Source: a virus (Duplodnaviria; Heunggongvirae; Uroviricota; Caudoviricetes; Autographiviridae). Taken from it: 10,867 bases of DNA. Every line of letters starts with the position of its first letter. Position 1 is the stretch's first letter. A program made the position numbers and the translations under genes. Shown in pieces: positions 1 to 10,867 of the stretch. The stretch is from the IMG/VR virus record IMGVR_UViG_2609459797_000001, one strand, 5' to 3'. The notes below the pieces were generated by a model. The model was not told where the DNA came from. It worked only from the letters and a program-made list of their open reading frames with translations, and ran no database searches.

Positions 1-377
1 TGGACGAACAGTGGGGCTATGTCGGGGCTAAATCGCGCCAGCGCTGGCTGTTTTACGCGTATGACAGGCTCCGGAAGACGGTTGTTGCGCACGTATTCGG
101 TGAACGCACTATGGCGACGCTGGGGCGTCTTATGAGCCTGCTGTCACCCTTTGACGTGGTGATATGGATGACGGATGGCTGGCCGCTGTATGAATCCCGC
201 CTGAAGGGAAAGCTGCACGTAATCAGCAAGCGATATACGCAGCGAATTGAGCGGCATAACCTGAATCTGAGGCAGCACCTGGCACGGCTGGGACGGAAGT
301 CGCTGTCGTTCTCAAAATCGGTGGAGCTGCATGACAAAGTCATCGGGCATTATCTGAACATAAAACACTATCAATAA
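1..377 (+). CDS. insB: IS1 transposase InsB, C-terminal part (5' end lies outside the window)
   Basis: Open frame from the window start to TAA at 375-377; the listed ORF 111..377 is only the part after an internal Met. Sequence recognised as IS1 InsB from memory. Confidence 0.85.
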
Positions 378-392
378 GTTGGAGTCATTACC
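1..392 (+). mobile_element. IS1 insertion sequence, 3' portion ending at its terminal inverted repeat; truncated by the window edge
   Basis: Frame 3..377 translates to the InsB C-terminal sequence ([21 protein letters not shown]...[15 protein letters not shown]). GTTGGAGTCATTACC at 378-392 matches the IS1 terminal repeat as I remember it, 15 nt after the insB stop. Confidence 0.9.
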
Positions 393-457
393 TGGTGTTC
401 CTTACCTTGCAGCCTTCGGAATAGCAAAATCTATATTAGAGCATTTAGGGATAAAAG

Positions 458-1534
458 ATGAATTTGACAGCAATGAATCTTGTGAATGCGATAGCCAACC
501 TGCCCAAAAACAGGCAGTTTGATTATGTGAATGAAAGTAATGCTGGGAAGATTGTCGTCGACTCGATTAAGTCACCACAAGGCCCGATACGCTTTAAGCG
601 TTTTAACCCGACCAAAGGTGAGACGCTTAAAGATGCAAAAATAGACAGCATCTCTAGCCAGATGCTTTGGCGTTTGGCTAACGCAATTCAAGAGGATGCA
701 CCTATCAATTTAGATAGAGTGCTTGGTGCAAGCTATAACTCCCGTTCCGTTATTGAGAGTTTACTTGCACACACACCGCAATTTTATTGGTGTAAACTCG
801 ACCGTTTAGAAGTTATTAACACTAAACAGACGGTAAAGAAAGGCCACAAGCATCTTGTGTACTTACCCAATTCGCCACACGAAAACGGTAAGCTCTCTGA
901 ATACAAAGCTAATATTGTAATATCAGAGATGAAAACAGAAGTTGTTTATCAAAGTGTTGATCTGGAAACAATCCGTCCAGTTGAAGGTATGTCGATTGAA
1001 GAATCAAGAAGGCATGCACAAATCCAGATTGCTTTAGTAAAAATAGGCCACCACTTAGGCTATAGAACATGGGTGGCAGCTAATGATCGTGGACTTAAAT
1101 ATAACGGGAAAGTCATTGCTCAAATGGATGGGGTAATTGATAGTCTCTCAAATGAAAAGGTATTAAGCTCGTACAGCGAGGCCATTGACGGTGCAAAACT
1201 AATAGATTGCATTTGGTTTAGAAATGGAAAATTAATGCCCGCCGTGATGGAAATTGAGCACAGCACTGGGATTAAAAGCGGATTAATCCGTATGAAGAAT
1301 TTTTGTGACTATGCCCCACGGCTTCAAGATATCAGATGGACAATCGTAGCCCCCGATGAATATCGAGCTAAAGTCATTGAATTTGCGAATATGCCGCAAT
1401 TCCGAGAGCTGGACACAAAATTCTTCCCGTACTCAGCAGTCGAAGAGTTGTATTCTCTTTGTGAACGACGCAAACCACAAGGAATTACAGACCAATTCCT
1501 TAATGCGTTTATGGAAAACTGCGTAACCCACTGA
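458..1534 (+). CDS. Hypothetical protein (358 aa), compositionally foreign; possible nuclease or defence-type protein (inference only)
   Basis: ATG at 458 preceded by AGGGA about 7 nt upstream; uninterrupted 358-codon frame to TGA at 1532-1534. Hand counts on 60-nt samples give about 37-48% GC against a clearly GC-richer surrounding. Convergent with the minus-strand operon. Weak D...E-x-E pattern (LIDCIWF...AVMEIEHS) that could be a PD-(D/E)XK-like core; not verified. Confidence 0.7.
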   Translation: MNLTAMNLVNAIANLPKNRQFDYVNESNAGKIVVDSIKSPQGPIRFKRFNPTKGETLKDAKIDSISSQMLWRLANAIQEDAPINLDRVLGASYNSRSVIESLLAHTPQFYWCKLDRLEVINTKQTVKKGHKHLVYLPNSPHENGKLSEYKANIVISEMKTEVVYQSVDLETIRPVEGMSIEESRRHAQIQIALVKIGHHLGYRTWVAANDRGLKYNGKVIAQMDGVIDSLSNEKVLSSYSEAIDGAKLIDCIWFRNGKLMPAVMEIEHSTGIKSGLIRMKNFCDYAPRLQDIRWTIVAPDEYRAKVIEFANMPQFRELDTKFFPYSAVEELYSLCERRKPQGITDQFLNAFMENCVTH

Positions 1535-1554
1535 CTAGAAGTTAAACATCTTTT

Positions 1555-1576
1555 GTGCCGGGTGCAACCCCGGCAC
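1555..1576. terminator. GC-rich hairpin between convergent genes (8-bp stem GTGCCGGG/CCCGGCAC, 6-nt loop); possible bidirectional terminator, non-canonical
   Basis: Perfect inverted repeat at 1555-1562 and 1569-1576, lying between the stop of the 458-1534 gene and the stop of the 1589-2017 gene. A T-run precedes rather than follows the stem on the plus strand, so there is no classical U-tract in either direction. Confidence 0.3.
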
Positions 1577-1588
1577 AGCCAGAACTCA

Positions 1589-2017
1589 TCACCCCGGATA
1601 AACAACGCCCAGCCCTTGGTTTTGTTGGCGGTAGCTCGCCAGCATCGCGTTCATGTTGCCAGGCGACAGCCCACACAAACGCCCAGCATGGTAGCCACCC
1701 TCAGCAGCGTTAGCAGAACGATGCACCACAGCACGCACGCGCCCGGTTCGGTGGCAATGATCCAGCACGGCAGACGCAAGGCGCAGCGGTTTACCTGTCA
1801 CCGCACAGCGTCGGTATTGATAATTCCACAGGAAGATACGGACAGCGGCCACATCAGCGCGGCGCAACTCCAGCCGACCGGAACCATTCAACAGGAAGCG
1901 ATACACATCTTCGAATACAGCAGCATTTGTAATCCGTTCAGCCAACGGCATGTTGCCGAGGTGTTCCAGATAGTCCCGCATCGCTTTTCTTAGTAGTTGG
2001 TCTGTCCGTGTAACCAT
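1589..2017 (-). CDS. Endonuclease VII-like (phage T4 gp49 family) junction-resolving nuclease
   Basis: Motif LDHCHRTGRVRAVV...ANAAEG matches the remembered endonuclease VII core (HLDHDHE...GKVRGLLCNLCNAAEG). ATG at 2017 with GGAG about 10 nt upstream; last gene of the minus-strand operon. Confidence 0.75.
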   Translation of the reverse strand: MVTRTDQLLRKAMRDYLEHLGNMPLAERITNAAVFEDVYRFLLNGSGRLELRRADVAAVRIFLWNYQYRRCAVTGKPLRLASAVLDHCHRTGRVRAVVHRSANAAEGGYHAGRLCGLSPGNMNAMLASYRQQNQGLGVVYPG

Positions 2018-2289
2018 GATTCAAAGTCTCCATTGTCAGACGCAGCCCGCTTGCAGGCTTCGTATTCTTCGCACTGGCGTTGGCAAACCAGAACATAAAG
2101 TTCATCAGCCATCGCATTAACGCGTTCGTCACTGATACCGTTGCGGCGCATTAGCCCCAGCAGCTTACGAAATTCAGCTTCCAGCTCAGGCTCTCCGGTA
2201 TCCATTACCCACTGTTTCAGGTCAGCGAGTGCGCCAGTCATTGGCGGCGGCTCGATGTACCGCCACCTTAATTTAATCGTGGTTATCAT
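1990..2289 (-). CDS. Hypothetical small phage protein (start uncertain; 2289, 2241 and the TTG at 2337 are alternatives)
   Basis: Minus-strand frame ending TAA at 1990-1992. The listed start at 2337 is a TTG and overlaps the upstream gene by 65 nt; the ATG at 2289 overlaps the upstream stop by 17 nt, which is more typical of coupled genes. Confidence 0.45.
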   Translation of the reverse strand: MITTIKLRWRYIEPPPMTGALADLKQWVMDTGEPELEAEFRKLLGLMRRNGISDERVNAMADELYVLVCQRQCEEYEACKRAASDNGDFESWLHGQTNY

Positions 2290-2698
2290 CTTCTTTATTC
2301 TCTCTGTAAGCCGGGTGCATTGCCCGGTATTGCTCAATGGTCAAACCCTCGCTGGCCGCTGTAAGCCGTTCCTTTTGCTTACCCGCCAATCGCAAGGCGC
2401 TGTCTCTCCAGCAGAGCAGAAAGAAGACGGTCAGCACCTGCTTACTCAAGCCATCCAGAAGATCACCAAGTCCTTGCTCCAGAAGACAGGCACGCCATGC
2501 AGCGGCATGCTCCGTCATAGCGCCGACTATCGGGACAGGTGCGCCAAGCATCGTCGCAAGTTGGCTCATAACACTATTAGCATCGCCCGGATGCAGTCGG
2601 GGCATAGTCATGCGGCCAGCCTGCGCCAACAGTTCAGCGTACCGCTGGCGACGTGGGTCATCATCTGCCAGCGCTCTAATCGGCTTTTCATCAGCCAT
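2273..2698 (-). CDS. Hypothetical phage protein (141 aa)
   Basis: ATG at 2698 with GGAGG 9 nt upstream; lies 18 nt after the stop of the HNH gene; same strand and packing as its neighbours. Confidence 0.7.
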   Translation of the reverse strand: MADEKPIRALADDDPRRQRYAELLAQAGRMTMPRLHPGDANSVMSQLATMLGAPVPIVGAMTEHAAAWRACLLEQGLGDLLDGLSKQVLTVFFLLCWRDSALRLAGKQKERLTAASEGLTIEQYRAMHPAYRENKEDDNHD

Positions 2699-2716
2699 TA
2701 ATGGAACCTCCGGGGA

Positions 2717-3226
2717 TTAGGCAGCCTGCAACAAATCGGCTGGTGTTGAGGGATGGTATCTGGCTTTAGCTTTCAGGTACGCAGCACGTGCCGCCGCTTC
2801 GGATGTGAATAAGCCAAGGTGATGGCGTACACCGTCAACGCGTATGTAAGCCTCCCATTTGCTACAGCCTTTATTCCAGCTATATCCCCTTGCCTTGCGT
2901 CGGTTCTGGTCGTTTTCCCGCTGCGTAACCAAACGCAGATTGCATAGGCGGTTGTCGTCACGGATACCGTTGATGTGATCGATCTGCTTACCGTGAGGAA
3001 TAGCGCCATGCGCAAGAATCCACGCCACGCGATGGGCTTTTAGCTGGTACTGCTTGCCATCAAGTCGCAGGGCAACTTGACGATAGCCATCAGCTCGCCG
3101 GGTGGAGTCAGCATAGGAGCCAGCCTTAACCCGGCGTCGGTTAGCTTTATGGCACAAGCGACCTGTAACCGGGTCATACAGGAAAAGGGATCGCAGCAGC
3201 TCAGGGGCGTAAGCATCATTAACCAT
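2717..3226 (-). CDS. HNH homing-endonuclease-like protein with C-terminal AP2-type DNA-binding domain
   Basis: HNH_3-type motif AHRVAWILAHG...IDHINGIRDDNRLCNLRLVTQREN, followed by an AP2-like segment GYSWNKGCSKWEAYIRVDGVRHHLGLFTSEAAARAAYLKA. ATG at 3226 with GGAGGGG upstream. Confidence 0.85.
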   Translation of the reverse strand: MVNDAYAPELLRSLFLYDPVTGRLCHKANRRRVKAGSYADSTRRADGYRQVALRLDGKQYQLKAHRVAWILAHGAIPHGKQIDHINGIRDDNRLCNLRLVTQRENDQNRRKARGYSWNKGCSKWEAYIRVDGVRHHLGLFTSEAAARAAYLKAKARYHPSTPADLLQAA

Positions 3227-3242
3227 GACTCAGCCCCTCCAG

Positions 3243-4238
3243 TTACGCAGATTGTCGGAAATTGATAACGCAATCAGGACGACGCAGCCCAACGTTGAAC
3301 AGGCGATATGAGTCCATCACCATCGTCATTTCGCGTTCATCATCCCACTGGCGATTAATGACGCTCTGCGCTTCGACCGTCAACAGTACCGAGGAAGGTT
3401 TAAACAGCGTCGCCCTCGTCAGCGCTTCCTCTGCGGTAACGTCATAATCAGCGCCCAGTTCATGCCCGGTAATGGCTTCCTGCGGGTAACTATTCAGCTC
3501 GATAACTCGCACCCCAGCGACATAGCCAACACGACGCCATGCGTAATCGTTGCCACTATCCCGGCTGTAACGGACGTTCATCAGCTTCTTATGTTCCATC
3601 AGGATGCTGAACCAAGCCGGGTCGATAAGCAGTACCAACTCCGCCACCGGAATATCTTTCTCAGTCAGGAATCGATTAACAGCAGCTTTAATAGCGCTAA
3701 CCAGCTCATTCGCGGCGTCTTCTTCGCTCCCCGCTGTCAGGTCGAGCGAGACAACGTTATCCGTCAACGGGTTAAACGTTGGTTGCAGTGTCGGCGGTGG
3801 TACAAAGTCAGTCGCTTTGATTAGCTGGATGGCGTGCGCTTCGTCGTAGAATTTAGCGTGAGCAGTACCGATATTGCGGCTCAGCTCTGCGCGAAAGGTG
3901 GGTGCAGTCCAGTCATCCTGATAGTCAATGGGGATGCGGATATAGCTCAGCGTATCCACAGAGATAACCAACTTGTCCGACTTAACGGCGGTAGGCTCCA
4001 GCGATTGCCCTGCTGTTCTGCCCTTCACCTCCAGATCACCACTCAGGCGATCAATGCGGTATTGGTTGCTGGCTTTCAGCGGCCTGTATGTAGACAGCCT
4101 CTCGGCCAGAAATACGGATTTGGACTCTAAACGGGTCTGGACATCCCGGTCATAAGCCTCGATGTGAATATCATTGTCGGATTCCACCCCGCCATAATGT
4201 GGGCGAAACAGATCGGGACTGTACGAAGTATCAGCCAT
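3243..4238 (-). CDS. Hypothetical 331-aa protein; motif pattern resembles HK97-fold major capsid protein of the T7 gp10 type (unverified)
   Basis: ATG at 4238 with GGAG 8-9 nt upstream. Ungapped, position-matched motif resemblance to T7 gp10 as I remember it: VLIYDIED versus IRIPIDYQDD near residue 100; ALTK...VP...DRVFYCDPDSYSAIL versus RFLTEKDIPVAELVLLIDPAWFSIL near 185-215; NVMGFEVVEVP versus YVAGVRVIELN near 240; KYAMG..GLRPE versus SYRLFNVGLRRPD near the C-terminus. Recall-based, needs profile confirmation. Confidence 0.75.
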   Translation of the reverse strand: MADTSYSPDLFRPHYGGVESDNDIHIEAYDRDVQTRLESKSVFLAERLSTYRPLKASNQYRIDRLSGDLEVKGRTAGQSLEPTAVKSDKLVISVDTLSYIRIPIDYQDDWTAPTFRAELSRNIGTAHAKFYDEAHAIQLIKATDFVPPPTLQPTFNPLTDNVVSLDLTAGSEEDAANELVSAIKAAVNRFLTEKDIPVAELVLLIDPAWFSILMEHKKLMNVRYSRDSGNDYAWRRVGYVAGVRVIELNSYPQEAITGHELGADYDVTAEEALTRATLFKPSSVLLTVEAQSVINRQWDDEREMTMVMDSYRLFNVGLRRPDCVINFRQSA

Positions 4239-4435
4239 AACAAAACTCCTACATATGTTGATGAAGCCCGCGCCATCGTCATGGCACAGACGTGCGTAAT
4301 CCTCCCGCCGAGGCAGGATTCAGAACGGTATCGATTAAAGGGATGAGGTGCCCCGGAATGGGCGTTTTGAGGCCAGAGCTGGCGCGGTTCTCAGGGGTTA
4401 GTGCGCGTAAAGTAAGGCGAAAGTATTACCTTGCA

Positions 4436-4849
4436 TTAGTGCGCACTCATACGCGCCATGTTCAACACCTTCCGCACAGAGGTTTCAGACACACCAACCT
4501 TGCTTGCAATGTAACGATTTTTCTGACCTTTTGCAGAGCGATCGATAATGTCAGCGCGTATCGCCTCAGTGATCACCTTGCGGGGTCTGGCTCGGTTCTT
4601 CTCGTGCCGTTCACGTTCGCGCAGCCTTTCGGCCAACTTCGGCGGTAGTACAGGGGAAAGCCCACGGCTAACGCCAGATGTGCGGGTGCCGGATGTGGCA
4701 GACCGGGCAACGATATAAACCGCTTCGTCTGGATTGAAAACGTGCTGCACACGCTCAGGGTAAATGTGGTCGCATCTACCCAACGGCAAGGCGAAATCCG
4801 GGCGCACGTCAGCGACACGCTCCACAGCATGGAAATTACAGGTACTCAT
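4436..4849 (-). CDS. Hypothetical protein with C-terminal helix-turn-helix and an N-terminal Cys/His cluster
   Basis: ATG at 4849 with GAGG about 7 nt upstream. C-terminus IIDRSAKGQKNRYIASKVGVSETSVRKVLN looks like a resolvase/sigma-region-4-type HTH; N-terminus has C-x2-H...C-x-H (MSTCNFH...RCDH). Confidence 0.65.
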   Translation of the reverse strand: MSTCNFHAVERVADVRPDFALPLGRCDHIYPERVQHVFNPDEAVYIVARSATSGTRTSGVSRGLSPVLPPKLAERLRERERHEKNRARPRKVITEAIRADIIDRSAKGQKNRYIASKVGVSETSVRKVLNMARMSAH

Positions 4850-4988
4850 TACGAACCTCGGTTAATTAAAAACAGGCTTTCAGATGCCGCGCAGAATGCG
4901 GCTTGCGGGGACTCATGCGCATAGATTGGTGTGGTAGTACCGGGTCGGTGCGCACTCGGTCTTGCAGAGCGCATTCCACCGTTGGGCG

Positions 4989-5684
4989 TTAGCGGCCAGC
5001 ACGTTTGCCAGCGGAGCGCTGCGCAACCAGAGCGCGGTATTGTTCATCGTACTGGCGATGGCCGGGGCCATACCCTGATTGCTGCGCCCACTGCGAAAGC
5101 TGGTCATACGCTGCTATAAACTCAGCATGAGACATTCCGACAGGTTGCGCGGTAGACTGGCCGTATGGGTTCCCCTGTGATGGGACATAACCAGTCGCAG
5201 TGCCTGCGGACATCCTCTCTTGCAGGTACTGAACCGCCCGCTGCATCTGCGCAGGGTCGCCAGACATAACCATTCGTTCAAGGGTTGATTGCGTCCCACT
5301 GTCGAGCGTGCCAGCGTACTGTAACATCGCGTCAACTGTTCCCTGTCCGAGCTGGCTTTCAATGGACTGGTGAAACTGCCCCATCAATCCTTGCAGCTCA
5401 GCGGTATACTCGACAGCAGTTCCGTCCATCAGAGGGATAGTATCGCCCACCTGCGCCCCGGCGCTGTCAGCGTTCTGGTCTTGCTGATTAGCAATATTGC
5501 TATTATTCCATTGGCCGCCATCATTACCGTTAACGGGTTGGGTACGGAGGAAATCAGCATCAGCAGGCGCAGAGCTAAAGCGGGATGCCCCATTGTCAGC
5601 TCCAACAGGTGCAGCCATGTATGGCGATTGCTGCGATGCAGCATCAGCGCCAGCAGCGAGATAAGGGTTTTGATTGTCAGCCAT
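4989..5684 (-). CDS. Q/N/G/A-rich low-complexity protein (231 aa), function unknown
   Basis: ATG at 5684 with AGAGG upstream, 2 nt after the stop of the preceding gene. Strongly biased composition (for example NGNDGGQWNNSNIANQQDQN) with a helical-looking C-terminal half. Confidence 0.6.
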   Translation of the reverse strand: MADNQNPYLAAGADAASQQSPYMAAPVGADNGASRFSSAPADADFLRTQPVNGNDGGQWNNSNIANQQDQNADSAGAQVGDTIPLMDGTAVEYTAELQGLMGQFHQSIESQLGQGTVDAMLQYAGTLDSGTQSTLERMVMSGDPAQMQRAVQYLQERMSAGTATGYVPSQGNPYGQSTAQPVGMSHAEFIAAYDQLSQWAQQSGYGPGHRQYDEQYRALVAQRSAGKRAGR

Positions 5685-5686
5685 AA

Positions 5687-5926
5687 TTATGCAACCTCTT
5701 GTGATGTAACTCGGCGGTGCGCCAGTTCAAGTAAAAGCATGTGCGCATGTACGCATCGGGCAGGAATCATCTTCTGTCCGTGGTACGCTTTGCCGAGATC
5801 TTGTCTGTCGATCTGGTACACACGAGCCAAGTCGATTTGACGAAGATTCAAGGCGTCAGCAATGAATTTCAGTTGTTGCCCGCAATCAGCCGCGCGGCGT
5901 GGCTCCATTAAAATGATGGTGCTCAT
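5687..5926 (-). CDS. Small XRE/Cro-like helix-turn-helix protein (start placed at the internal ATG with a good RBS)
   Basis: Segment LKFIADALNLRQIDLARVYQIDRQDLGKAYHGQKMIP has the XRE-type HTH pattern. The ATG at 5926 has GAGG about 9 nt upstream, whereas the listed start at 5968 overlaps the upstream gene. Confidence 0.55.
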   Translation of the reverse strand: MSTIILMEPRRAADCGQQLKFIADALNLRQIDLARVYQIDRQDLGKAYHGQKMIPARCVHAHMLLLELAHRRVTSQEVA

Positions 5927-5940
5927 GAAATAATCCTCAG

Positions 5941-6171
5941 TTAAATAAGCCCGTGACGGCGTAGCCAACGGCGCTCGCCAGCGGAGCCACGCGGACGCTG
6001 GCGGCGTCCACGGGCGGTGACTGGCTGTTCGGGTGCGGCCTCACTTCGGAGATTCTGCGTCAGGATGTCCCACCCCTGCGGCTTAACAGGGGCGTAGCCT
6101 TCCCGCATCTCGTCAAGGTTGACGTATTGAGTCGGGTCAATTGCAGGGTGAATGATGTCGTTATCTTCCAT
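5941..6171 (-). CDS. Hypothetical small protein with Arg-rich C-terminus
   Basis: The ATG at 6169-6171 overlaps the upstream TGA stop (6171-6173) by one base in a TGATG arrangement, indicating translational coupling; stop TAA at 5941-5943. The listed start at 6186 would overlap by 16 nt. Confidence 0.45.
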   Translation of the reverse strand: MEDNDIIHPAIDPTQYVNLDEMREGYAPVKPQGWDILTQNLRSEAAPEQPVTARGRRQRPRGSAGERRWLRRHGLI

Positions 6172-6749
6172 CACTCGGCTCCCCATTTCGCATTAACATT
6201 TTCCAGAATGTCACCATACGGCCAGCGGCTCTTTAAGCAGCGGTTAACGAAAGCGATCACCTCTGGCAGAACGTCCAGCTTTTGGGCGATGTCAGCGACA
6301 GGCCAGCCAAAGCGCTCTAACTTGTGGATTTCATCCAAATCAGAAGGCACCAGCTTGCGCATGGCTTTCGCTTTCTCCGGCTTCACTTTAACGGCTTTCG
6401 GCGCAGGGTGAGTGTGGGCGTTCTGGAATCTGGAATGAGCGATAGCCAGCACGGTTTCAGGGCGAATCAGCGTATCGCGGGCAATCATAAATTCCGTATC
6501 ACGGTGCAGCTTGCCGGGCTTATAGCGGCTGCGGATGGCGTTGTATTCAGCCAGAGTAATATCAGCATCGTCTTTCCACTGTTCGGCCAAGTCATCGACA
6601 TAGACGCCACGGATTACACGGTCGATGTCGCTCGGGCTGAAACCAGTGCGAGAAGAGATTTCATCGTTGTTCAGGTGGTCAACAATACTCAGTTTATTGA
6701 TAAGCTGAATATCGCGCAGGGTCAGGGTTGCGTTACTGGTGGTTGTCAT
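6171..6749 (-). CDS. Hypothetical protein (about 192 aa) with HTH-like segments; possible DNA-binding protein
   Basis: The ATG at 6749 has GGAGAG 9-10 nt upstream; the listed start at 6767 is a TTG. HTH-like stretches near both termini (ATLTLRDIQLINKLSIVDHL and VADIAQKLDVLPEVIAFV). Confidence 0.65.
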   Translation of the reverse strand: MTTTSNATLTLRDIQLINKLSIVDHLNNDEISSRTGFSPSDIDRVIRGVYVDDLAEQWKDDADITLAEYNAIRSRYKPGKLHRDTEFMIARDTLIRPETVLAIAHSRFQNAHTHPAPKAVKVKPEKAKAMRKLVPSDLDEIHKLERFGWPVADIAQKLDVLPEVIAFVNRCLKSRWPYGDILENVNAKWGAE

Positions 6750-6924
6750 ACTGGAACTCTCCATCAAAGTTAATCGAATCTTCTACAAGGTCTTTAATCA
6801 AAGCGAGGCTGGATGCGGTATGGATACCACCGCCGCGCCGGGCGTTGTCGTACATGGCTTTGGCCTGCTTCTGGTACTTCTCAGGCAGCGAGTTAAACCA
6901 CGCTCTAAACTGGTGCGGCGTCAT
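6733..6924 (-). CDS. Hypothetical small protein (63 aa)
   Basis: ATG at 6922-6924 overlaps the upstream TGA (6921-6923) in an ATGA-type junction; GGAGG about 11 nt upstream. Confidence 0.5.
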   Translation of the reverse strand: MTPHQFRAWFNSLPEKYQKQAKAMYDNARRGGGIHTASSLALIKDLVEDSINFDGEFQYDNHQ

Positions 6925-7130
6925 TCGTTGTCATCCTCCGGGAACACGTTATTGAAAGATGCGTCCGGCGCATCGGCGGCATTTTGCTTGAGGAAGTTCA
7001 CGCAGGATGACAGCTCGGCAGCAGCCATGCGGGATTCTCCAGCGGAGTCCTCTTTCAGGCGGCGGGTCAGCGCCTCCAGCAACAGGCACCGCATATCCCA
7101 TGTCCCAGCTTCAAACTCGGTTTTGGTCAT
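6921..7130 (-). CDS. Hypothetical small protein (69 aa)
   Basis: ATG at 7128-7130 overlaps the upstream TAA (7130-7132) in a TAATG junction; same operon and strand. Confidence 0.5.
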   Translation of the reverse strand: MTKTEFEAGTWDMRCLLLEALTRRLKEDSAGESRMAAAELSSCVNFLKQNAADAPDASFNNVFPEDDNE

Positions 7131-7561
7131 TAATGGTTATCTCCAACTGGTAACAGGCCAAGCGCCCGGATGTGCTGTATCACTTCTTGATGCACGGGCT
7201 TCGGCAGAAATAAACGGCGGGCAATGGCGGCGTAAACTTCATCAGGTGTCTTGCGCACTGGATGCACTCGACCATTAAAAACCCGCTCAGACAGGCGGAC
7301 AGCTTTCCAGCAACGTGAGCCATCCGGCCTTTTCATGCGGTTCAGCACAGCGGCCAGACACTCCCACGGTTCGCAATCATTCAAAAGGCAATATCGCTCC
7401 AGCGGCGTGGACACCTCGCGAAGGATGGCCTCCCGGTTAAGGGTCTTGCGATGACGTTCGGCCAACCCATCAAATGAATACCCGTTCAGGGCGTAAGCGA
7501 GCTGCGCATTAATCAGGGCGTCAGAACGCCCCGCGCGTTGCTGCACGGTTTCATCAGGCAT
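7130..7561 (-). CDS. Hypothetical phage protein (143 aa)
   Basis: ATG at 7561 with GGAG 8 nt upstream; 43 nt downstream of the helicase stop. Confidence 0.7.
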   Translation of the reverse strand: MPDETVQQRAGRSDALINAQLAYALNGYSFDGLAERHRKTLNREAILREVSTPLERYCLLNDCEPWECLAAVLNRMKRPDGSRCWKAVRLSERVFNGRVHPVRKTPDEVYAAIARRLFLPKPVHQEVIQHIRALGLLPVGDNH

Positions 7562-7604
7562 GTGGATTCTCCAGAGAGGAAATTAAACAGGCGAGCCAGT
7601 TAGC

Positions 7605-9449
7605 TCAGAGGAAGCGGGAGATGTAACCCCAGTTAGCATTGTGGGGCTGGTACAACGCCGCCAAATCATCAGGCGCATCCCCCAGCGCCAACGATGACCA
7701 GAGTATGAAAGCACGGGCAGGTTGACCATCGCGCCCGGCACGGCCAACCATTTGCACCAAATCGGGCAGGTCTTCCGGAACATAAGTGACAATTACGTTA
7801 CGCACGTCAGAAATATCGGCTCCGAGGCCAAAGGCTTTGGTCGCCACCAGAACAGCGCCGGGCGTGCTGGAGAACCACTCTGCGTTGGCGTGCCGCTGAT
7901 CGCGGCTCAGTCGCTCAACGTCAGAATGATAAGGCCGGGCACGGTCTCCCAGTTCGTTGAGATACGCATACAGCATCTTTATGCTGTCCACCATCACCAA
8001 TGTCTTTTCATTCTCCGGCAGCGCATTGACCAGACCAACGGCAGCCCGGCGCGGAGTTACGCATTGCTGAGCAGGAATAAGCTGGATGTTTTCACGGGCA
8101 GCACTGGCGCGGTAGGTGAGGAACTCGCCACGACAGCCAAGCTCTTTCATCAAGCCAGACTCATCACCTTTTCGCAGGGTCGCAGTAAACGCGCACCGCT
8201 GAGCATCCGGGAAGGCATTTTGCAGGGTGTGCTTCATTGCAGGGAAAGCGTCCCGGAACTCCCATTCATCAACGGTGTGCACCTCGTCAATGATAAATCT
8301 GTCCGCACCAGCGGCCATCAGCGCGGCAAGCACCTGACTACCCGGCACCAGATGTTCAGGCGAAACGACTGCGACGCGGAAAGCACCAGCAGCCAACCCC
8401 GCAAGTTGCTGCGCATTACGCCGCTTCGGTAGTTTATCGCCAAATGCCACAGCGTGAACGCCAGCCTCCCTTAACTGCTGTAGCACCTGCTGCTTGATAG
8501 TGTTCGTCGGCACGACAATAACGGTCATACCTTCGCCAGCATCAGACTCAAATTGCAGGGCATAGGTGAATGCAGCCGTCTTTCCGTACCCGGTCGGCAG
8601 TACGGCCAACATATCGCGGTCACGGGCAAACACAGCGGCGGCCACGTCGAGTTGACCGGGTCGCCAGTCATGACCATCTGGCGGCGGTAACGGTACGAAT
8701 GCCGGGCGGTCGCATTGCTCCAGCTCACGGAACCTGTACGGCGCTGTAACCAGCGGCGGGATGGACGGCGGCAGGTCAGCGCCGCCAACGTCACAGTGTT
8801 GGTTCTTCGTGTTGAAATTGTCCTTAGTGGATTTCAGCTCACTGCCCCATAGCTGGTGAAACTCCGGGCTATCCCCGAGGGTGTCAAAGTCAGCGTGGCG
8901 CATCGCCTCCAGCTTGCTCATGCCACGATTGATGCGGCGGATGGTCTTCTCATCACAAATCAGAAACTCGCGACAGGCTTTAAGAAAGGCGTTTTGCCCC
9001 GTGGTCGCTTCCGGGATGGCGTGCTCACGCGGTTTCAATGCGGCATCGTCTACGCGAACACCGGGGAAATCTGGTGGCAGCGGCTCGGCGTACCGGGCAG
9101 GCTTTTTGTTTAGCCACATCACCAGCTCAGCGCGGCGGCAGTGGATTGCATCGCCCGGCTGGATAATCTGGCGCAACCCTGCATCAGCGCGGCGGGCGTG
9201 TGTCTTGCGTCCGATTCCGTTAGCCTCTTTCCATTCTCGGAACGACATAACAGAATCGTCAGCGTTAAAGTAAAACTCTTGTGACTCCGTATTAAACGCA
9301 GCCTGTATGGGTTTACGCTTTACAGGACATTGCTTGTTACGCGATACAACTATCTTATCCGCAACCAGTTGCTGAGCATCCGCAGGCGCAGTGTTCAGCG
9401 GTTCGGCGTCAGCGGCCAGCGCAAGCAGGCGGTTCAATCTCGTGGGCAT
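7605..9449 (-). CDS. SF2 DExH/RecQ-like helicase (614 aa) with a roughly 270-aa non-helicase N-terminal extension
   Basis: Helicase motifs in order: LPTGYGKT (motif I), VVPTNT (Ia), DEVH (II), FTAT (III), VGRAGRDGQ (VI). ATG at 9449 with GGAG 9 nt upstream. Confidence 0.9.
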   Translation of the reverse strand: MPTRLNRLLALAADAEPLNTAPADAQQLVADKIVVSRNKQCPVKRKPIQAAFNTESQEFYFNADDSVMSFREWKEANGIGRKTHARRADAGLRQIIQPGDAIHCRRAELVMWLNKKPARYAEPLPPDFPGVRVDDAALKPREHAIPEATTGQNAFLKACREFLICDEKTIRRINRGMSKLEAMRHADFDTLGDSPEFHQLWGSELKSTKDNFNTKNQHCDVGGADLPPSIPPLVTAPYRFRELEQCDRPAFVPLPPPDGHDWRPGQLDVAAAVFARDRDMLAVLPTGYGKTAAFTYALQFESDAGEGMTVIVVPTNTIKQQVLQQLREAGVHAVAFGDKLPKRRNAQQLAGLAAGAFRVAVVSPEHLVPGSQVLAALMAAGADRFIIDEVHTVDEWEFRDAFPAMKHTLQNAFPDAQRCAFTATLRKGDESGLMKELGCRGEFLTYRASAARENIQLIPAQQCVTPRRAAVGLVNALPENEKTLVMVDSIKMLYAYLNELGDRARPYHSDVERLSRDQRHANAEWFSSTPGAVLVATKAFGLGADISDVRNVIVTYVPEDLPDLVQMVGRAGRDGQPARAFILWSSLALGDAPDDLAALYQPHNANWGYISRFL

Positions 9450-9472
9450 GTTTGAAATCTCCAGTCAAATAA

Positions 9473-9775
9473 TCAAGCAGCTTTCCGCCAGATGTATCGG
9501 CGGTGGACACCTCTCTTTTTGGTCACGCCGTGCAGCTTTCGCCATGCGCGGAAGGTCATAACGGAACCATCGGGATTGTAGTAATACACACGCAGACGTT
9601 TGTGGAATGCTCCCTGTACCGTCTTGTCCGTGACAGCGCAGCGCACGTAATGCGGGATAACAGTTTCACTCCAGACCAGTTGTTGCGGCGTGGCGCTAAT
9701 CGTGCTTAACGCTTCGGCGGCAGCGGTTGCCAGCTCCAGTTGCAGGCGTGAATTCATGTGGCGTAAATCAACCAT
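9473..9775 (-). CDS. Small protein (100 aa) paralogous to the N-terminal ~90 residues of the downstream helicase
   Basis: ATG at 9775 with GGAG about 8 nt upstream. Ungapped alignment to helicase residues ~3-92: QQLV, C-x-V, K, Q-AF, Y-N-D-SVM-FR-W, G, K, RR all in register. Confidence 0.7.
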   Translation of the reverse strand: MVDLRHMNSRLQLELATAAAEALSTISATPQQLVWSETVIPHYVRCAVTDKTVQGAFHKRLRVYYYNPDGSVMTFRAWRKLHGVTKKRGVHRRYIWRKAA

Positions 9776-9818
9776 GATGTAAGCTCCAGAAATTAAGGTG
9801 AGTTTAGAACGGGGCGCA

Positions 9819-9875
9819 GGACGGAAGCGCCGGAAGTGTGGCGGTGGCGGTTGAGGCGGCGTCGGTGTTCCGTCC
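9819..9875. other. GC-rich interrupted hairpin (stem GGACGGAA/TTCCGTCC around a 41-nt GGCGG-repeat loop) in the operon leader
   Basis: Perfect 8-bp inverted repeat at 9819-9826 and 9868-9875, with an inner CGCCG/CGGCG pair and three GGCGG repeats in the loop; lies 45-100 nt upstream of the first start codon of the minus-strand operon. Confidence 0.3.
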
Positions 9876-10123
9876 CTCTTTAGTAGTGATCTTCATCCAG
9901 TGATTTGGATTTAACTCAGGCGCAACAGGCAATGCAGCGGGATAGCGCGAGGGCGGGCTTGTGGTCTCATCTTCCCACAGTAGTAACCCTTATCGGTCGG
10001 TAGCCTTCCCAATATAGTAGCTTTCAAGTCAAGAATTCTATCCGGGGCTTGCCTTCCCTTTGTAGTCACTTTCATCCACGCATACCCCGGACAGCCCTTG
10101 TGGCGTCTGGTGCGACAGGCAAT
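9876..10123. repeat. Iteron-like imperfect direct repeats in the noncoding region upstream of the helicase operon
   Basis: CTCTTTAGTAGTGATCTTCATCCA (9876-9899) versus CCCTTTGTAGTCACTTTCATCCA (10056-10078); GGCGCAACAGGCAAT (9919-9933) versus GGTGCGACAGGCAAT (10109-10123); CTTGTGG twice; CAATATAG twice; TAGTAG-type hexamers four times. Confidence 0.4.
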
Positions 10124-10252
10124 TTCAGGTAGGTGTATTAGGGATGTGAAATTGGTTCTTGGCGTAGCTCTTTCCTACAATATAGACACTTTTAAATTTA
10201 TTAATAAATGCAGTCAGTTAAACGGTTATCTTTATTACCTATAACTTTCACA

Positions 10253-10274
10253 GATCAATAGATTAAAATTGATC
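10253..10274. promoter_or_regulatory. Palindromic operator-like site GATCAAT-N8-ATTGATC containing two GATC (Dam) sites
   Basis: Perfect 7-bp inverted repeat with an 8-bp AT-rich spacer, located just upstream of the promoter-like hexamers. Confidence 0.35.
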
Positions 10275-10287
10275 GGAATTATCAGCT

Positions 10288-10325
10288 TTAAATTTCTTGA
10301 CAGCTATTTGTATAATGGTTTTAAG
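10288..10325 (+). promoter_or_regulatory. Rightward sigma70-like promoter candidate (overlapping alternatives)
   Basis: Perfect TATAAT at 10311-10316 with TTAAAT 17 bp upstream (10288-10293); alternatively perfect TTGACA at 10297-10302 with TTTAAG 17 bp downstream (10320-10325). AT-rich upstream region. Confidence 0.35.
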
Positions 10326-10329
10326 AAGT

Positions 10330-10470
10330 TGTATCGGAGTGAGCGACTGGCAGTGAGCGTAGCGAACGGTAAGCCAGTCGGCGAAGAACGAAGAGTATGA
10401 GATGACTTGTCATCGAATACGATGAGTGATTGAGCGCTACGAACGAAGATACGCTGTATAACAGTTAGAA
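10330..10470 (+). other. Hairpin-rich untranslated segment downstream of the promoter candidate; possible small RNA or leader, interrupted by IS1
   Basis: No ORF longer than a few codons. 8-bp stem CGACTGGC/GCCAGTCG (10344-10351 and 10373-10380); two mutually exclusive hairpins sharing TCATC (GATGA-CTTG-TCATC at 10401-10414 and CATCG-AATA-CGATG at 10411-10424); GAACGAAGA repeated at 10386-10394 and 10441-10449. Confidence 0.2.
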
Positions 10471-10527
10471 CAGTTAACTAGCTGAATATGAATAATACAT
10501 TTAATATTTATCTGGATTAGTATTTTC

Positions 10528-10867
10528 GGTGATGCTGCCAACTTACTGATTTAGTGTATGATGGTGTTTTTGAGGTGCTCCAGTGGCTTCTGTTTCTATC
10601 AGCTGTCCCTCCTGTTCAGCTACTGACGGGGTGGTGCGTAACGGCAAAAGCACCGCCGGACATCAGCGCTATCTCTGCTCTCACTGCCGTAAAACATGGC
10701 AACTGCAGTTCACTTACACCGCTTCTCAACCCGGTACGCACCAGAAAATCATTGATATGGCCATGAATGGCGTTGGATGCCGGGCAACAGCCCGCATTAT
10801 GGGCGTTGGCCTCAACACGATTTTACGTCACTTAAAAAACTCAGGCCGCAGTCGGTAACCTCGCGCA
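10528..10867 (+). mobile_element. IS1 insertion sequence, 5' portion (left terminal repeat and insA); continues beyond the window
   Basis: GGTGATGCTGCCAACTTACTGAT at 10528 onward matches the IS1 end repeat as I remember it; insA starts 55 nt inside, as in IS1. Same orientation as the IS1 fragment at 1-392. Confidence 0.9.
10583..10858 (+). CDS. insA: IS1 InsA (91 aa)
   Basis: Translation [43 protein letters not shown]...LKNSGRSR recognised as IS1 InsA from memory; complete ORF with stop at 10856-10858. Confidence 0.9.

Follow-up and report, generated by a model that had tools for sequence, protein, structure and literature searches.

A gene for a 331-residue protein (positions 3243–4238, minus strand) was examined in a 10,867-nucleotide stretch of viral DNA, IMG/VR record IMGVR_UViG_2609459797_000001 of the Autographiviridae, which is referred to here as the window. 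Within the window a 10,137-bp segment (393–10529) sits between two partial IS1 copies in the same orientation and is filled, save for one plus-strand cargo gene, by one operon on the minus strand that extends from 9775 to 1589. A preliminary description made from the sequence alone had noted that the 331-residue protein resembles the T7 gp10-type capsid protein, that its neighbours are a helicase, helix-turn-helix (HTH) proteins, a Q-rich protein and nucleases, and that portal and large terminase (TerL) genes are missing. Pfam and PHROG searches agreed with this list; the Q-rich protein was present as described but had not been recognised as a scaffolding-protein homologue, and a small terminase (TerS) homologue at 6921–7130 had also been missed. 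Comparison with complete relatives placed the operon in an integrated island that is probably a phage satellite packaged by a helper phage.

The 331-residue protein is a genuine, intact phage head protein of the HK97 fold, a major capsid protein (MCP) of Bonnellvirus/phiKMV type. It matched PHROG 267 'major head protein' over residues 1–329 (E = 1.1e-69), found 765 matching phage records, and was 54–56% identical across 98% of its length to the Bonnellvirus MCPs of Lidtsur, forsur and J8-65. Solved capsid chains were matched with E-values ranging from 2.3e-79 (23sf gp17) to 9e-57, among them 8eld Gp37, 8vb0 gp38 and 9s9b. An AlphaFold2 (AF2) model (pLDDT 71.8, pTM 0.73) gave as its top Foldseek match the HRP29 procapsid MCP 8em6_A (E = 2.5e-29, TM 0.73/0.79), followed by PhiM1, cyanophage P-SCSP1u, Kp7, Kp9 and T7 3j7w (TM 0.61). 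The comparison with gp10 was therefore right at the level of the fold and supergroup, phiKMV/Bonnellvirus type being the more exact attribution. In the MCP tree the proteins of the islands described below formed one clade of three deep lineages, 59–61% identical to each other, which was sister to the Bonnellvirus/LIMEzero phages. The ratio of non-synonymous to synonymous substitution rates (dN/dS) of the gene was 0.11, and the protein would be expected to form an icosahedral shell that holds DNA. Reuse of the fold as a compartment shell, which the preliminary description had offered as one option, would make the product an encapsulin-like nanocompartment or a particle like a gene transfer agent (GTA). 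An MCP without portal and terminase is formally compatible with this, and GTA and encapsulin shells were among the distant matches of the model (ranks 32–49, 10–14% identity). The nearest relatives are however phage MCPs at 56% identity, whereas encapsulins appeared at rank 47 or lower with 10–12%; the MCP is accompanied by scaffold and TerS homologues and by a phage genome-end element, and no cargo enzyme or targeting-peptide partner was seen, so that a compartment or GTA-like role is extremely improbable.

The Q-rich protein (231 aa; 4989–5684, minus strand) was assigned from profile alignment and gene position. A PHROG search with the single sequence gave no match, and phmmer against 1.8 billion representative proteins recovered nine island relatives and no phage scaffold, therefore profile methods were needed. 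Alignment of the 231-aa family with Bonnellvirus scaffolds using hhalign gave a probability of 96.2% (E = 2.3e-9) and paired the C-terminal ~100 residues of both, reaching both C-termini (QYDEQYRALVAQRSAGKRAG against QYNQHYNVLVEQRKQAKALG); homology to a full-length scaffold of ~400 aa (phrog_36307/1018) was not obtained, as just these ~100 residues aligned. A hidden Markov model (HMM) of the family matched 48 ORFs in 79 phiKMV-like phage loci, all 48 of which lie 21–506 nt upstream of the phage MCP gene. The island protein is shorter than its phage counterparts by ~180 residues (231 against ~410) and its gene gave a dN/dS of 0.11. The AF2 model (pLDDT 38) had a disordered N-terminus and a helical C-terminal two-thirds, and was uninformative beyond this helical content. 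Judged from the profile alignment, the Q-rich protein is a half-length scaffold homologue that has kept the C-terminal domain.

The second truncated homologue, of T7 gp18-type TerS, is encoded at 6921–7130 on the minus strand (69 aa). Members of this family matched PF11123 in 20 of 25 cases (E ≤ 0.05) and no other family, covering positions ~3–48 of its 79, and two relatives (P0171 and P0175) exceeded its gathering threshold with 34.6 and 31.1 against 27.5 bits. Identity to the TerS of Lidtsur was 48% across 42 residues, the family HMM matched that protein with E = 2e-4, and phrog_891 was matched with E = 0.011. These alignments indicate that the ORF is a homologue of the N-terminal half of TerS. 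Its dN/dS was 0.13, and together with the MCP and scaffold-like genes it had the lowest value in the island, where the operon ORFs spanned 0.11–0.36.

Two nucleases of the operon also have relatives in phiKMV-like phages. The last gene (1589–2017, minus strand) is a core gene for a 142-aa endonuclease VII-like protein (Pfam Endonuclease_7, E = 2.8e-6; phrog_423, E = 7.5e-16), the family HMM of which matched 61 phiKMV-like phage ORFs at ~1e-10 as well as the Lidtsur endonuclease. Directly downstream of the MCP gene lies the gene of a 169-aa HNH_3 homing-type endonuclease (2717–3226, minus strand), which matched Pfam HNH_3 (E = 8.8e-19), phrog_99 (E = 3.4e-56) and the homing endonuclease of PADLOC. 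Of its relatives in phiKMV-like phages 10 of 42 stand directly upstream of the phage MCP gene; in island lineage L005 (loci are given L numbers) the gene lies upstream of the helicase instead. Only four or five functions of a helper have homologues in the island (MCP, half a scaffold, half a TerS, endonuclease VII and a homing-type HNH protein), and the integrase, att sites, RecQ-like helicase and iteron/AT-rich region are the island's own.

DNA related to the window was found in 59 of 5,426 complete Escherichia coli genomes, in the chromosome every time; no plasmid location was found, the sole long plasmid match being a mislabelled chromosome. Relatives also occur in Kluyvera (MCP 98% identical), several Enterobacter species, Kosakonia and Trabulsiella, with TerS-like homologues in Cronobacter, Citrobacter, Salmonella and Phytobacter, and the host genera of the islands overlap those of Bonnellvirus-group phages. 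A deep lineage in Enterobacter hormaechei has an MCP just 59% identical and an unchanged gene order. In enteropathogenic E. coli (EPEC) E2348/69 and others the island is flanked by exact 31-nt repeats of the 3′ end of tRNA-Leu and has a tyrosine integrase at one end. Intact islands are present in E2348/69 (NC_011601, 4,847,3xx–4,862,4xx), in ARS-C101 and in Kluyvera ascorbata ATCC 33433, and the island MCP belongs to the WP_000774673 family. Exact att repeats of 25–34 nt were present in 16 islands and a different repeat of 18–28 nt in two others; the alternative repeat of L119 and L124 (GAGGGTTCGATTCCCTTC...) resembles by eye the 3′ end of tRNA-Gly, and the length of these islands is still 14.40–14.41 kb. 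Integrase and att repeats, which are generic features of satellites, are thus present in intact relatives and missing from the window copy. A slot between the integrase and endonuclease VII genes holds either AbiTii or, as in the window, a restriction-modification (R-M) system. The defence cargo (AbiTii, type II restriction endonuclease) occupies a hotspot, which is also the case in known satellites.

The complete islands have no annotated portal, TerL or tail genes. A tblastn comparison of the 55 Lidtsur proteins with the window and with 10 island loci gave matches for the endonuclease, the MCP and TerS alone, and portal, TerL, tail, internal-virion, polymerase and RNA polymerase (RNAP) genes were found in none of them. 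The lack of portal and TerL is therefore the native state of the whole island family. Neither the window nor the islands contain a complete Autographiviridae head and packaging module; the island is without a complete virion gene set, yet it has genes and sites that face helper morphogenesis, as is characteristic of satellites. The missing portal and TerL of the preliminary description were thus borne out for the window and extend to its complete relatives, none of which carries the ordinary complete head cluster that it had allowed for at the full locus. A truncated head module had been offered there as a further option, and the window copy is indeed cut by IS1 on both sides; some T7-like phages integrate, to judge from a title cited in PMC9618062. 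A decaying remnant of an integrated T7-like prophage with no current function should nevertheless not have the same genes, order and size in five or more genera and in three deep lineages, nor ORFs that are all intact with dN/dS of 0.11–0.36. Pseudogene fragments of portal, TerL, tail or RNAP genes were not present in any island, and with the absence of portal and TerL being native to the family, decay from a prophage is very improbable.

The length of the islands falls in a narrow range. From att to att 18 islands measured 14,403–15,379 bp, and the 17 non-duplicates, including the two at a different att, had a mean of 14,777 bp and a standard deviation of 264 bp. The tRNA-side (left) arm varies from 3.27 to 4.87 kb in 11 sequence types and the integrase-side (right) arm from 1.98 to 3.69 kb in nine. 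The lengths of the two arms are anticorrelated (r = -0.93), and none of 100,000 permutations of the arms yielded so narrow a spread of summed length. Relative to the Lidtsur genome (42,291 bp) the island has a ratio of 0.35. A similar ratio is found for P4/P2 and SaPI1/80alpha, in which T=4 satellite heads replace the T=7 heads of the helper, and because of this ratio a T=4 island shell beside a T=7 helper is plausible by analogy. That the satellite builds a smaller head than its helper is a tentative conclusion, about as likely as not. The capsids could instead be mixed or helper-sized, or the island MCP could supplement the capsid supply, the length limit then coming from replication or from the packaging of multimers. 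An MCP identity of 56% and the conserved C-terminus of the scaffold could permit co-assembly, and three island genomes (44 kb) would fill one helper-sized head, headful packaging of such a trimer being conceivable. The ratio of 0.35 however fits the T=4/T=7 pairs, and the loss of ~180 residues from a scaffold is a change expected to alter shell size, which makes mixed or helper-sized capsids improbable.

Comparison of the complete islands also brought out a non-coding element of ~43–88 nt that is absent from the window. Each intact island has a single copy in the tRNA-side arm, running CCCGGCTTGAAAAATTGCAC...CCCTCCCTCRAC, with a core of CCCGGCTTGAAAAATTGCACGCTTATGGTTGCCCCTCCCTC(A/G)AC followed ~16 nt on by CCCCC(G/A)TG. 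Among the island loci in which the left arm is covered, L005 included, all 29 had the 43-nt core at 92–100% conservation, although the sequences on either side of it differ. When a collection of 50,697 phage records was searched, only Bonnellvirus-group phages gave matches of more than 30 nt (11 records, 10 phages; 78–88 nt, 74–80% identity, E down to 5e-9) with the hosts E. coli, Enterobacter, Kosakonia and Pantoea. Lidtsur and altidsur each have one copy, located ~40–50 nt past the last late gene, at the start of a 1.4-kb non-coding stretch before the first early gene. The discoverers of these phages gave read-depth evidence for terminal repeats in that non-coding region (bioRxiv 10.1101/2020.01.19.911818). 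Because it is present as a single copy at the genome end, the element is a candidate packaging or concatemer-junction signal, a role that would suit it better than that of a general phage promoter. Three P2-like records share just a 30-nt piece of the element; positions 2102–2131 of L098 (query 54–83 of L098:2050–2260) were 93% identical to a non-coding site of P2-EC53 and R18C (E = 5e-3), which may be chance. Between the window and Lidtsur no non-coding similarity was found beyond the MCP gene.

A satellite that uses the packaging machinery of a helper had been among the options of the preliminary description, and it is favoured because the island is conserved, att-flanked and constrained in size, carries scaffold and TerS homologues, and shares a cis element with the genome ends of Bonnellvirus. 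Virulent Bonnellvirus-type (phiKMV-like) podophages are the likely helpers. A more specific proposal is that these are the first recognised satellites of virulent podophages of the T7 supergroup (Autographiviridae, Bonnellvirus), which would follow a shell-only strategy with a T=4-sized head on the portal of the helper and with TerL captured by the truncated TerS and a mimic of the end signal; we regard the case for and against this full proposal as evenly balanced.

The same genes could also serve defence alone, in which case the MCP, half scaffold and half TerS would be dominant-negative decoys against Bonnellvirus-like phages, and those phages would not transfer the island. The truncated scaffold and TerS each keep one domain, as competitive inhibitors typically do, and defence cargo is present in the island. 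The homing-type HNH gene adjoins that of the MCP, relatives of it are found next to the MCP genes of phages, and a packaged form was not seen in metagenomes. Decoys would however fail to explain the tight length of 14.4–15.4 kb with its compensating arms, the retention of an MCP at full length and under purifying selection stronger than that on any other island gene, the fact that the island has a replication module and integrase of its own, and the conserved Bonnellvirus end-region element. Interference and transfer are moreover compatible in known satellites, and an island devoted to defence only is considered unlikely.

Several points weigh against a helper-packaged satellite. No excised or circular island contigs and no terminal overlaps were found in metagenomes, where the ~15-kb contigs are integrated copies with short flanks, and two IMG/VR matches look like in-genome predictions. 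As the closest phage MCP is just 56% identical, the island MCP may not fit the portal of a Bonnellvirus phage, and its real helper may not yet have been sampled. Searches for repeats and motifs gave no convincing late-promoter consensus in Lidtsur that would define promoters for a helper RNAP. The island copies are phylogenetically related, and the size statistics overstate their independence. The physical genome ends of Bonnellvirus are unmapped, and the label of packaging signal is accordingly inferential. The TerS-like protein of the window itself matched PF11123 with 16.4 bits (E = 0.0098), below the threshold that its two relatives exceeded, and seven core proteins could not be assigned a function.

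For a satellite of this kind the following course of events may be proposed. Infection by the helper would lead to excision of the island, which would then replicate from its own iteron/AT-rich origin by means of its RecQ-like helicase. On the portal of the helper, the MCP of the island would assemble with the short scaffold into a smaller shell, while the TerS-like protein and the shared cis element would direct the helper TerL to island concatemers, debranched by the island endonuclease VII. The particle would be finished with tails and internal proteins of the helper. Interference with the helper, lowering its yield, may also come from the truncated TerS and scaffold and perhaps from the HNH protein.

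The window copy itself has been altered by the two IS1 copies. These were noted in the preliminary description and are present, with ends mapped to 392 and 10530, but the accompanying loss of the integrase, att sites and putative packaging element had not been recognised. The IS1 3′ part (1–392, plus strand) contains the end of insB and the terminal inverted repeat ...ATCAATAAGTTGGAGTCATTACC, and cuts the integrase-side arm; relative to the intact islands L011 and L013, window position 393 corresponds to L013 13846, 65 bp upstream of the start of the restriction endonuclease (REase) gene. The methylase gene, the integrase gene and one att repeat of intact islands are consequently missing. The IS1 5′ part (10530–10867, plus strand), with the inverted repeat GGTGATGCTGCCAACTTACTGAT and insA, cuts the tRNA-side arm ~1.08 kb upstream of the helicase start; similarity to intact islands ends at ~10527, and ~2.7 kb of the L013 tRNA-side arm is missing, including the shared non-coding element and attL. 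All operon ORFs of the window copy are intact. Because IS1 removed the integrase, att sites and cis element, the copy is an immobilised remnant in which the capsid and replication operon was left intact and could still express the capsid module. The direct IS1 pair around 10.1 kb (REase and satellite core) is arranged like a composite transposon, which could move the capsid and replication operon independently of the lost integrase.

The plus-strand cargo gene (458–1534) encodes a 358-aa type II REase (PADLOC REase_II, E = 1.3e-122) and lies in low-GC DNA (0.41–0.42). The same gene occupies the cargo position in L011 and L013 and stands beside a Dcm methylase gene in L002; in the window this partner gene was cut off by IS1. 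If its methylase is gone, an intact REase would be expected to be toxic, except where it is silent or inactive or where the methylase survives beyond IS1. A search for sigma-70 consensus promoters found none on the coding strand of the operon (1500–10530, minus), which is weak negative evidence; the three sites in this region were all on the opposite strand, against 6.4 expected. This scarcity would fit an operon kept silent until some helper factor switches it on. No RNA family was matched in an Rfam scan.

The largest gene of the operon (7605–9449, minus strand) encodes a 614-aa helicase of superfamily 2 (SF2) and the RecQ family with an N-terminal extension of ~255 aa. It matched Pfam DEAD, Helicase_C and ResIII, and scored 137.6 bits with NCBIfam recQ_fam, which is below cutoff; it is presumed to be the replication initiator/helicase of the island. 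The helicase also matched the PADLOC 'DpdF' sub-model PDLC02858 nearly end to end with 1052 bits. A Dpd (7-deazaguanine) defence system was rejected, since the DpdF match stands alone among the island ORFs, and PADLOC found no other Dpd component in the 10 proteins scanned. In view of the PDLC02858 match, automated defence annotation will mislabel such islands as partial Dpd systems. A 100-aa ORF (9473–9775, minus strand) is paralogous to a portion of the N-terminal domain of the helicase; its residues 31–92 match the helicase N-terminus (residues ~30–95) of other islands with 35–44% identity, and the ORF is absent from, for example, L013. The segment in common looks, by eye, like an excisionase/AlpA-like DNA-binding motif. 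Upstream of the operon lies an AT-rich non-coding region (9776–10529; GC 0.40), a putative origin or operator listed on the minus strand. It has four iteron-like repeats of the form ACTAY-N(3-6)-GGGA[AC]G, with minus-strand starts at 10066, 10018, 9984 and 9887, and analogous repeats of CTACTAAGG type are found upstream of the helicase in L001, L005 and L013. The stretch at ~9880–10330 probably serves as an origin or operator and varies together with the divergent alleles of the helicase.

Between the scaffold and MCP genes is a variable slot, which in the window holds a 137-aa protein with a C-terminal HTH (4436–4849, minus strand; HTH_23, E = 3.8e-4; phrog_836 'late transcriptional activator', E = 1.2e-3). 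Two unrelated alleles occupy this slot: in one the protein has 137–200 aa and an HTH at its C-terminus, in the other it has 115 aa. In the deep lineage L005 the slot (9470–9952) has the 115-aa type fused to a C-terminal HTH, and in L013 it spans 9586–9933. The leader of the MCP gene contains a conserved near-perfect hairpin, AATCCTGCCTCGGCGGGAGGATT (4298–4320, minus strand), followed by a second conserved GC-rich stretch to ~4262. Both are kept in all islands with the HTH137-type slot gene and are missing where the other slot allele is present; they are not found in L011, L013, L014 and L005. A processing site or attenuator are possible functions. The hairpin was also considered as a helper-promoter motif and rejected, as its 11-nt overlap with an early intergenic motif of Lidtsur is within chance (~0.17 expected). 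Close relatives of the HNH protein (E = 1e-33 to 1e-39) stand between the scaffold and MCP genes of many phiKMV-like phages, at ~9500–9990, in L052, L068, L080, L083, L086, L089, L093 and L094. The border of the MCP gene resembles a homing-endonuclease hotspot, which may explain how a satellite acquired the region or now attacks it.

The remaining genes of the operon, all on the minus strand, encode small proteins. A 115-aa core protein (1990–2337) is present in all island lineages, with 43% identity in L005 and a dN/dS of 0.34, and had no family match. A 141-aa protein (2273–2698) is conserved in window-type islands, with one distant homologue in another island locus, and had no Pfam or PHROG family match. 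Two small core ORFs at 5687–6186 (93 aa, 5687–5968; 81 aa, 5941–6186) are found in all lineages with dN/dS of 0.15–0.19. A 198-aa core protein (6171–6767), 37% identical in L005, is presumed to be a DNA-binding regulator from its weak HTH signals (HTH_38, E = 0.014; Sigma70_r4_2, E = 0.071; phrog_517, E = 9e-4). A 63-aa core ORF (6733–6924) and a 143-aa core protein (7130–7561) were identified by conservation among islands; the latter had no match in family scans, and its C-terminal domain occurs in L005 (6605–7166) as two tandem ORFs of 87 and 92 aa.

When the island was compared with known systems, the closest sequence relationship was to the head module of Bonnellvirus/phiKMV-like phages such as Lidtsur, J8-65 and LIMEzero. 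The MCPs are 50–56% identical over the full length, and there is homology in the scaffold C-terminal domain, the N-terminal half of TerS and endonuclease VII. In both, the MCP gene has the scaffold gene upstream of it, and the end-region cis element is shared. Unlike these phages the island has no portal, TerL, tail, internal-virion, RNAP or DNA polymerase genes, its scaffold (231 against ~410 aa) and TerS (69 against 101 aa) are shortened, and it sits integrated at a tRNA, encodes a tyrosine integrase and has about one third the length of a phage genome. The closest functional analogy is SaPI1, a Staphylococcus aureus pathogenicity island (SaPI), with its helper 80alpha: ~15 kb against ~43 kb gives the same ratio of 0.35, and a TerS homologue redirects packaging. 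CpmB of SaPI1 is reported by Dearborn et al. (2017) to be an alternative internal scaffold which shares just the C-terminal capsid-binding motif with the helper scaffold, and the 231-aa island protein parallels it. SaPIs however make small capsids from the MCP of the helper and the helpers are temperate siphoviruses, whereas the island has its own MCP and a RecQ-like protein in place of Pri-Rep. P4-like satellites of P2 share integration at tRNA-Leu in E. coli, defence cargo in a hotspot and a genome one third that of the helper. P4 obtains a T=4 instead of a T=7 head from the helper MCP with the external scaffold Sid and the decoration protein Psu, and encodes the alpha primase-helicase. No homologues of P4 sid, psu, delta or alpha were found by Pfam, PHROG or NCBIfam among the scanned window ORFs, the helicase being RecQ-like.

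Phage-inducible chromosomal islands of the capsid-forming type (cf-PICIs) are, like this island, integrative elements with their own HK97-fold MCP and TerS that take tails from a helper. The cf-PICIs encode the complete head and packaging set, with MCP, portal, protease, head-tail connectors, TerS and TerL (PMC13612085; bioRxiv 10.1101/2022.09.08.507074). The present island differs in having only an MCP, a scaffold and a TerS fragment, in the scaffold-dependent T7-type MCP and in its presumed virulent podophage helpers; cf-PICI portal, prohead protease, connector and TerL genes were not found by Pfam, PHROG or tblastn. For PLE, a satellite of the Vibrio cholerae phage ICP1, two papers describe small-capsid remodelling and a domesticated homing endonuclease directed at the capsid operon of the helper (PMC10945586, PMC8096241). 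PLE and PICMI resemble the island as satellites of virulent phages, but encode no MCP, use myovirus helpers and have no sequence relationship to it. Mulch and MiniFlayer of Streptomyces, according to PMC10690885, have encapsidation genes and a virulent helper; they belong to another host phylum, have siphovirus helpers and lack replication genes, whereas the island has a helicase and an origin. The YprA/ARMADA mobile elements at tRNA-Leu (PMC12458937) were considered and set aside as different elements for which a capsid is unmentioned.

The literature that was searched, with many subscription papers outside its reach, contained no description of this island, of the leuX island of E2348/69, or of satellites of T7-like phages or Autographiviridae. 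To our knowledge satellites of virulent T7-like phages have not been described, and the islands are apparently an undescribed family of a known kind of element, the phage satellites. If this is correct, podophages that are fast, self-sufficient and equipped with their own RNA polymerase are also parasitised, and a third capsid strategy, in which the shell is the satellite's own and the portal, motor and tail are borrowed, would stand between the classical PICIs with no head genes and the cf-PICIs with all of them. The islands would also offer a natural pair of MCP and scaffold variants for studying how scaffold length relates to T number, and a pointer to the packaging signal of phiKMV-like phages, which has yet to be mapped. 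Phages of the T7 type are leading ones in therapy and as models. The islands carry Abi and R-M cargo in E. coli, including EPEC E2348/69, and in Enterobacter, Kluyvera and Cronobacter, and because of this defence cargo they could, if they are satellites, influence how phage therapy turns out and disseminate defence genes.

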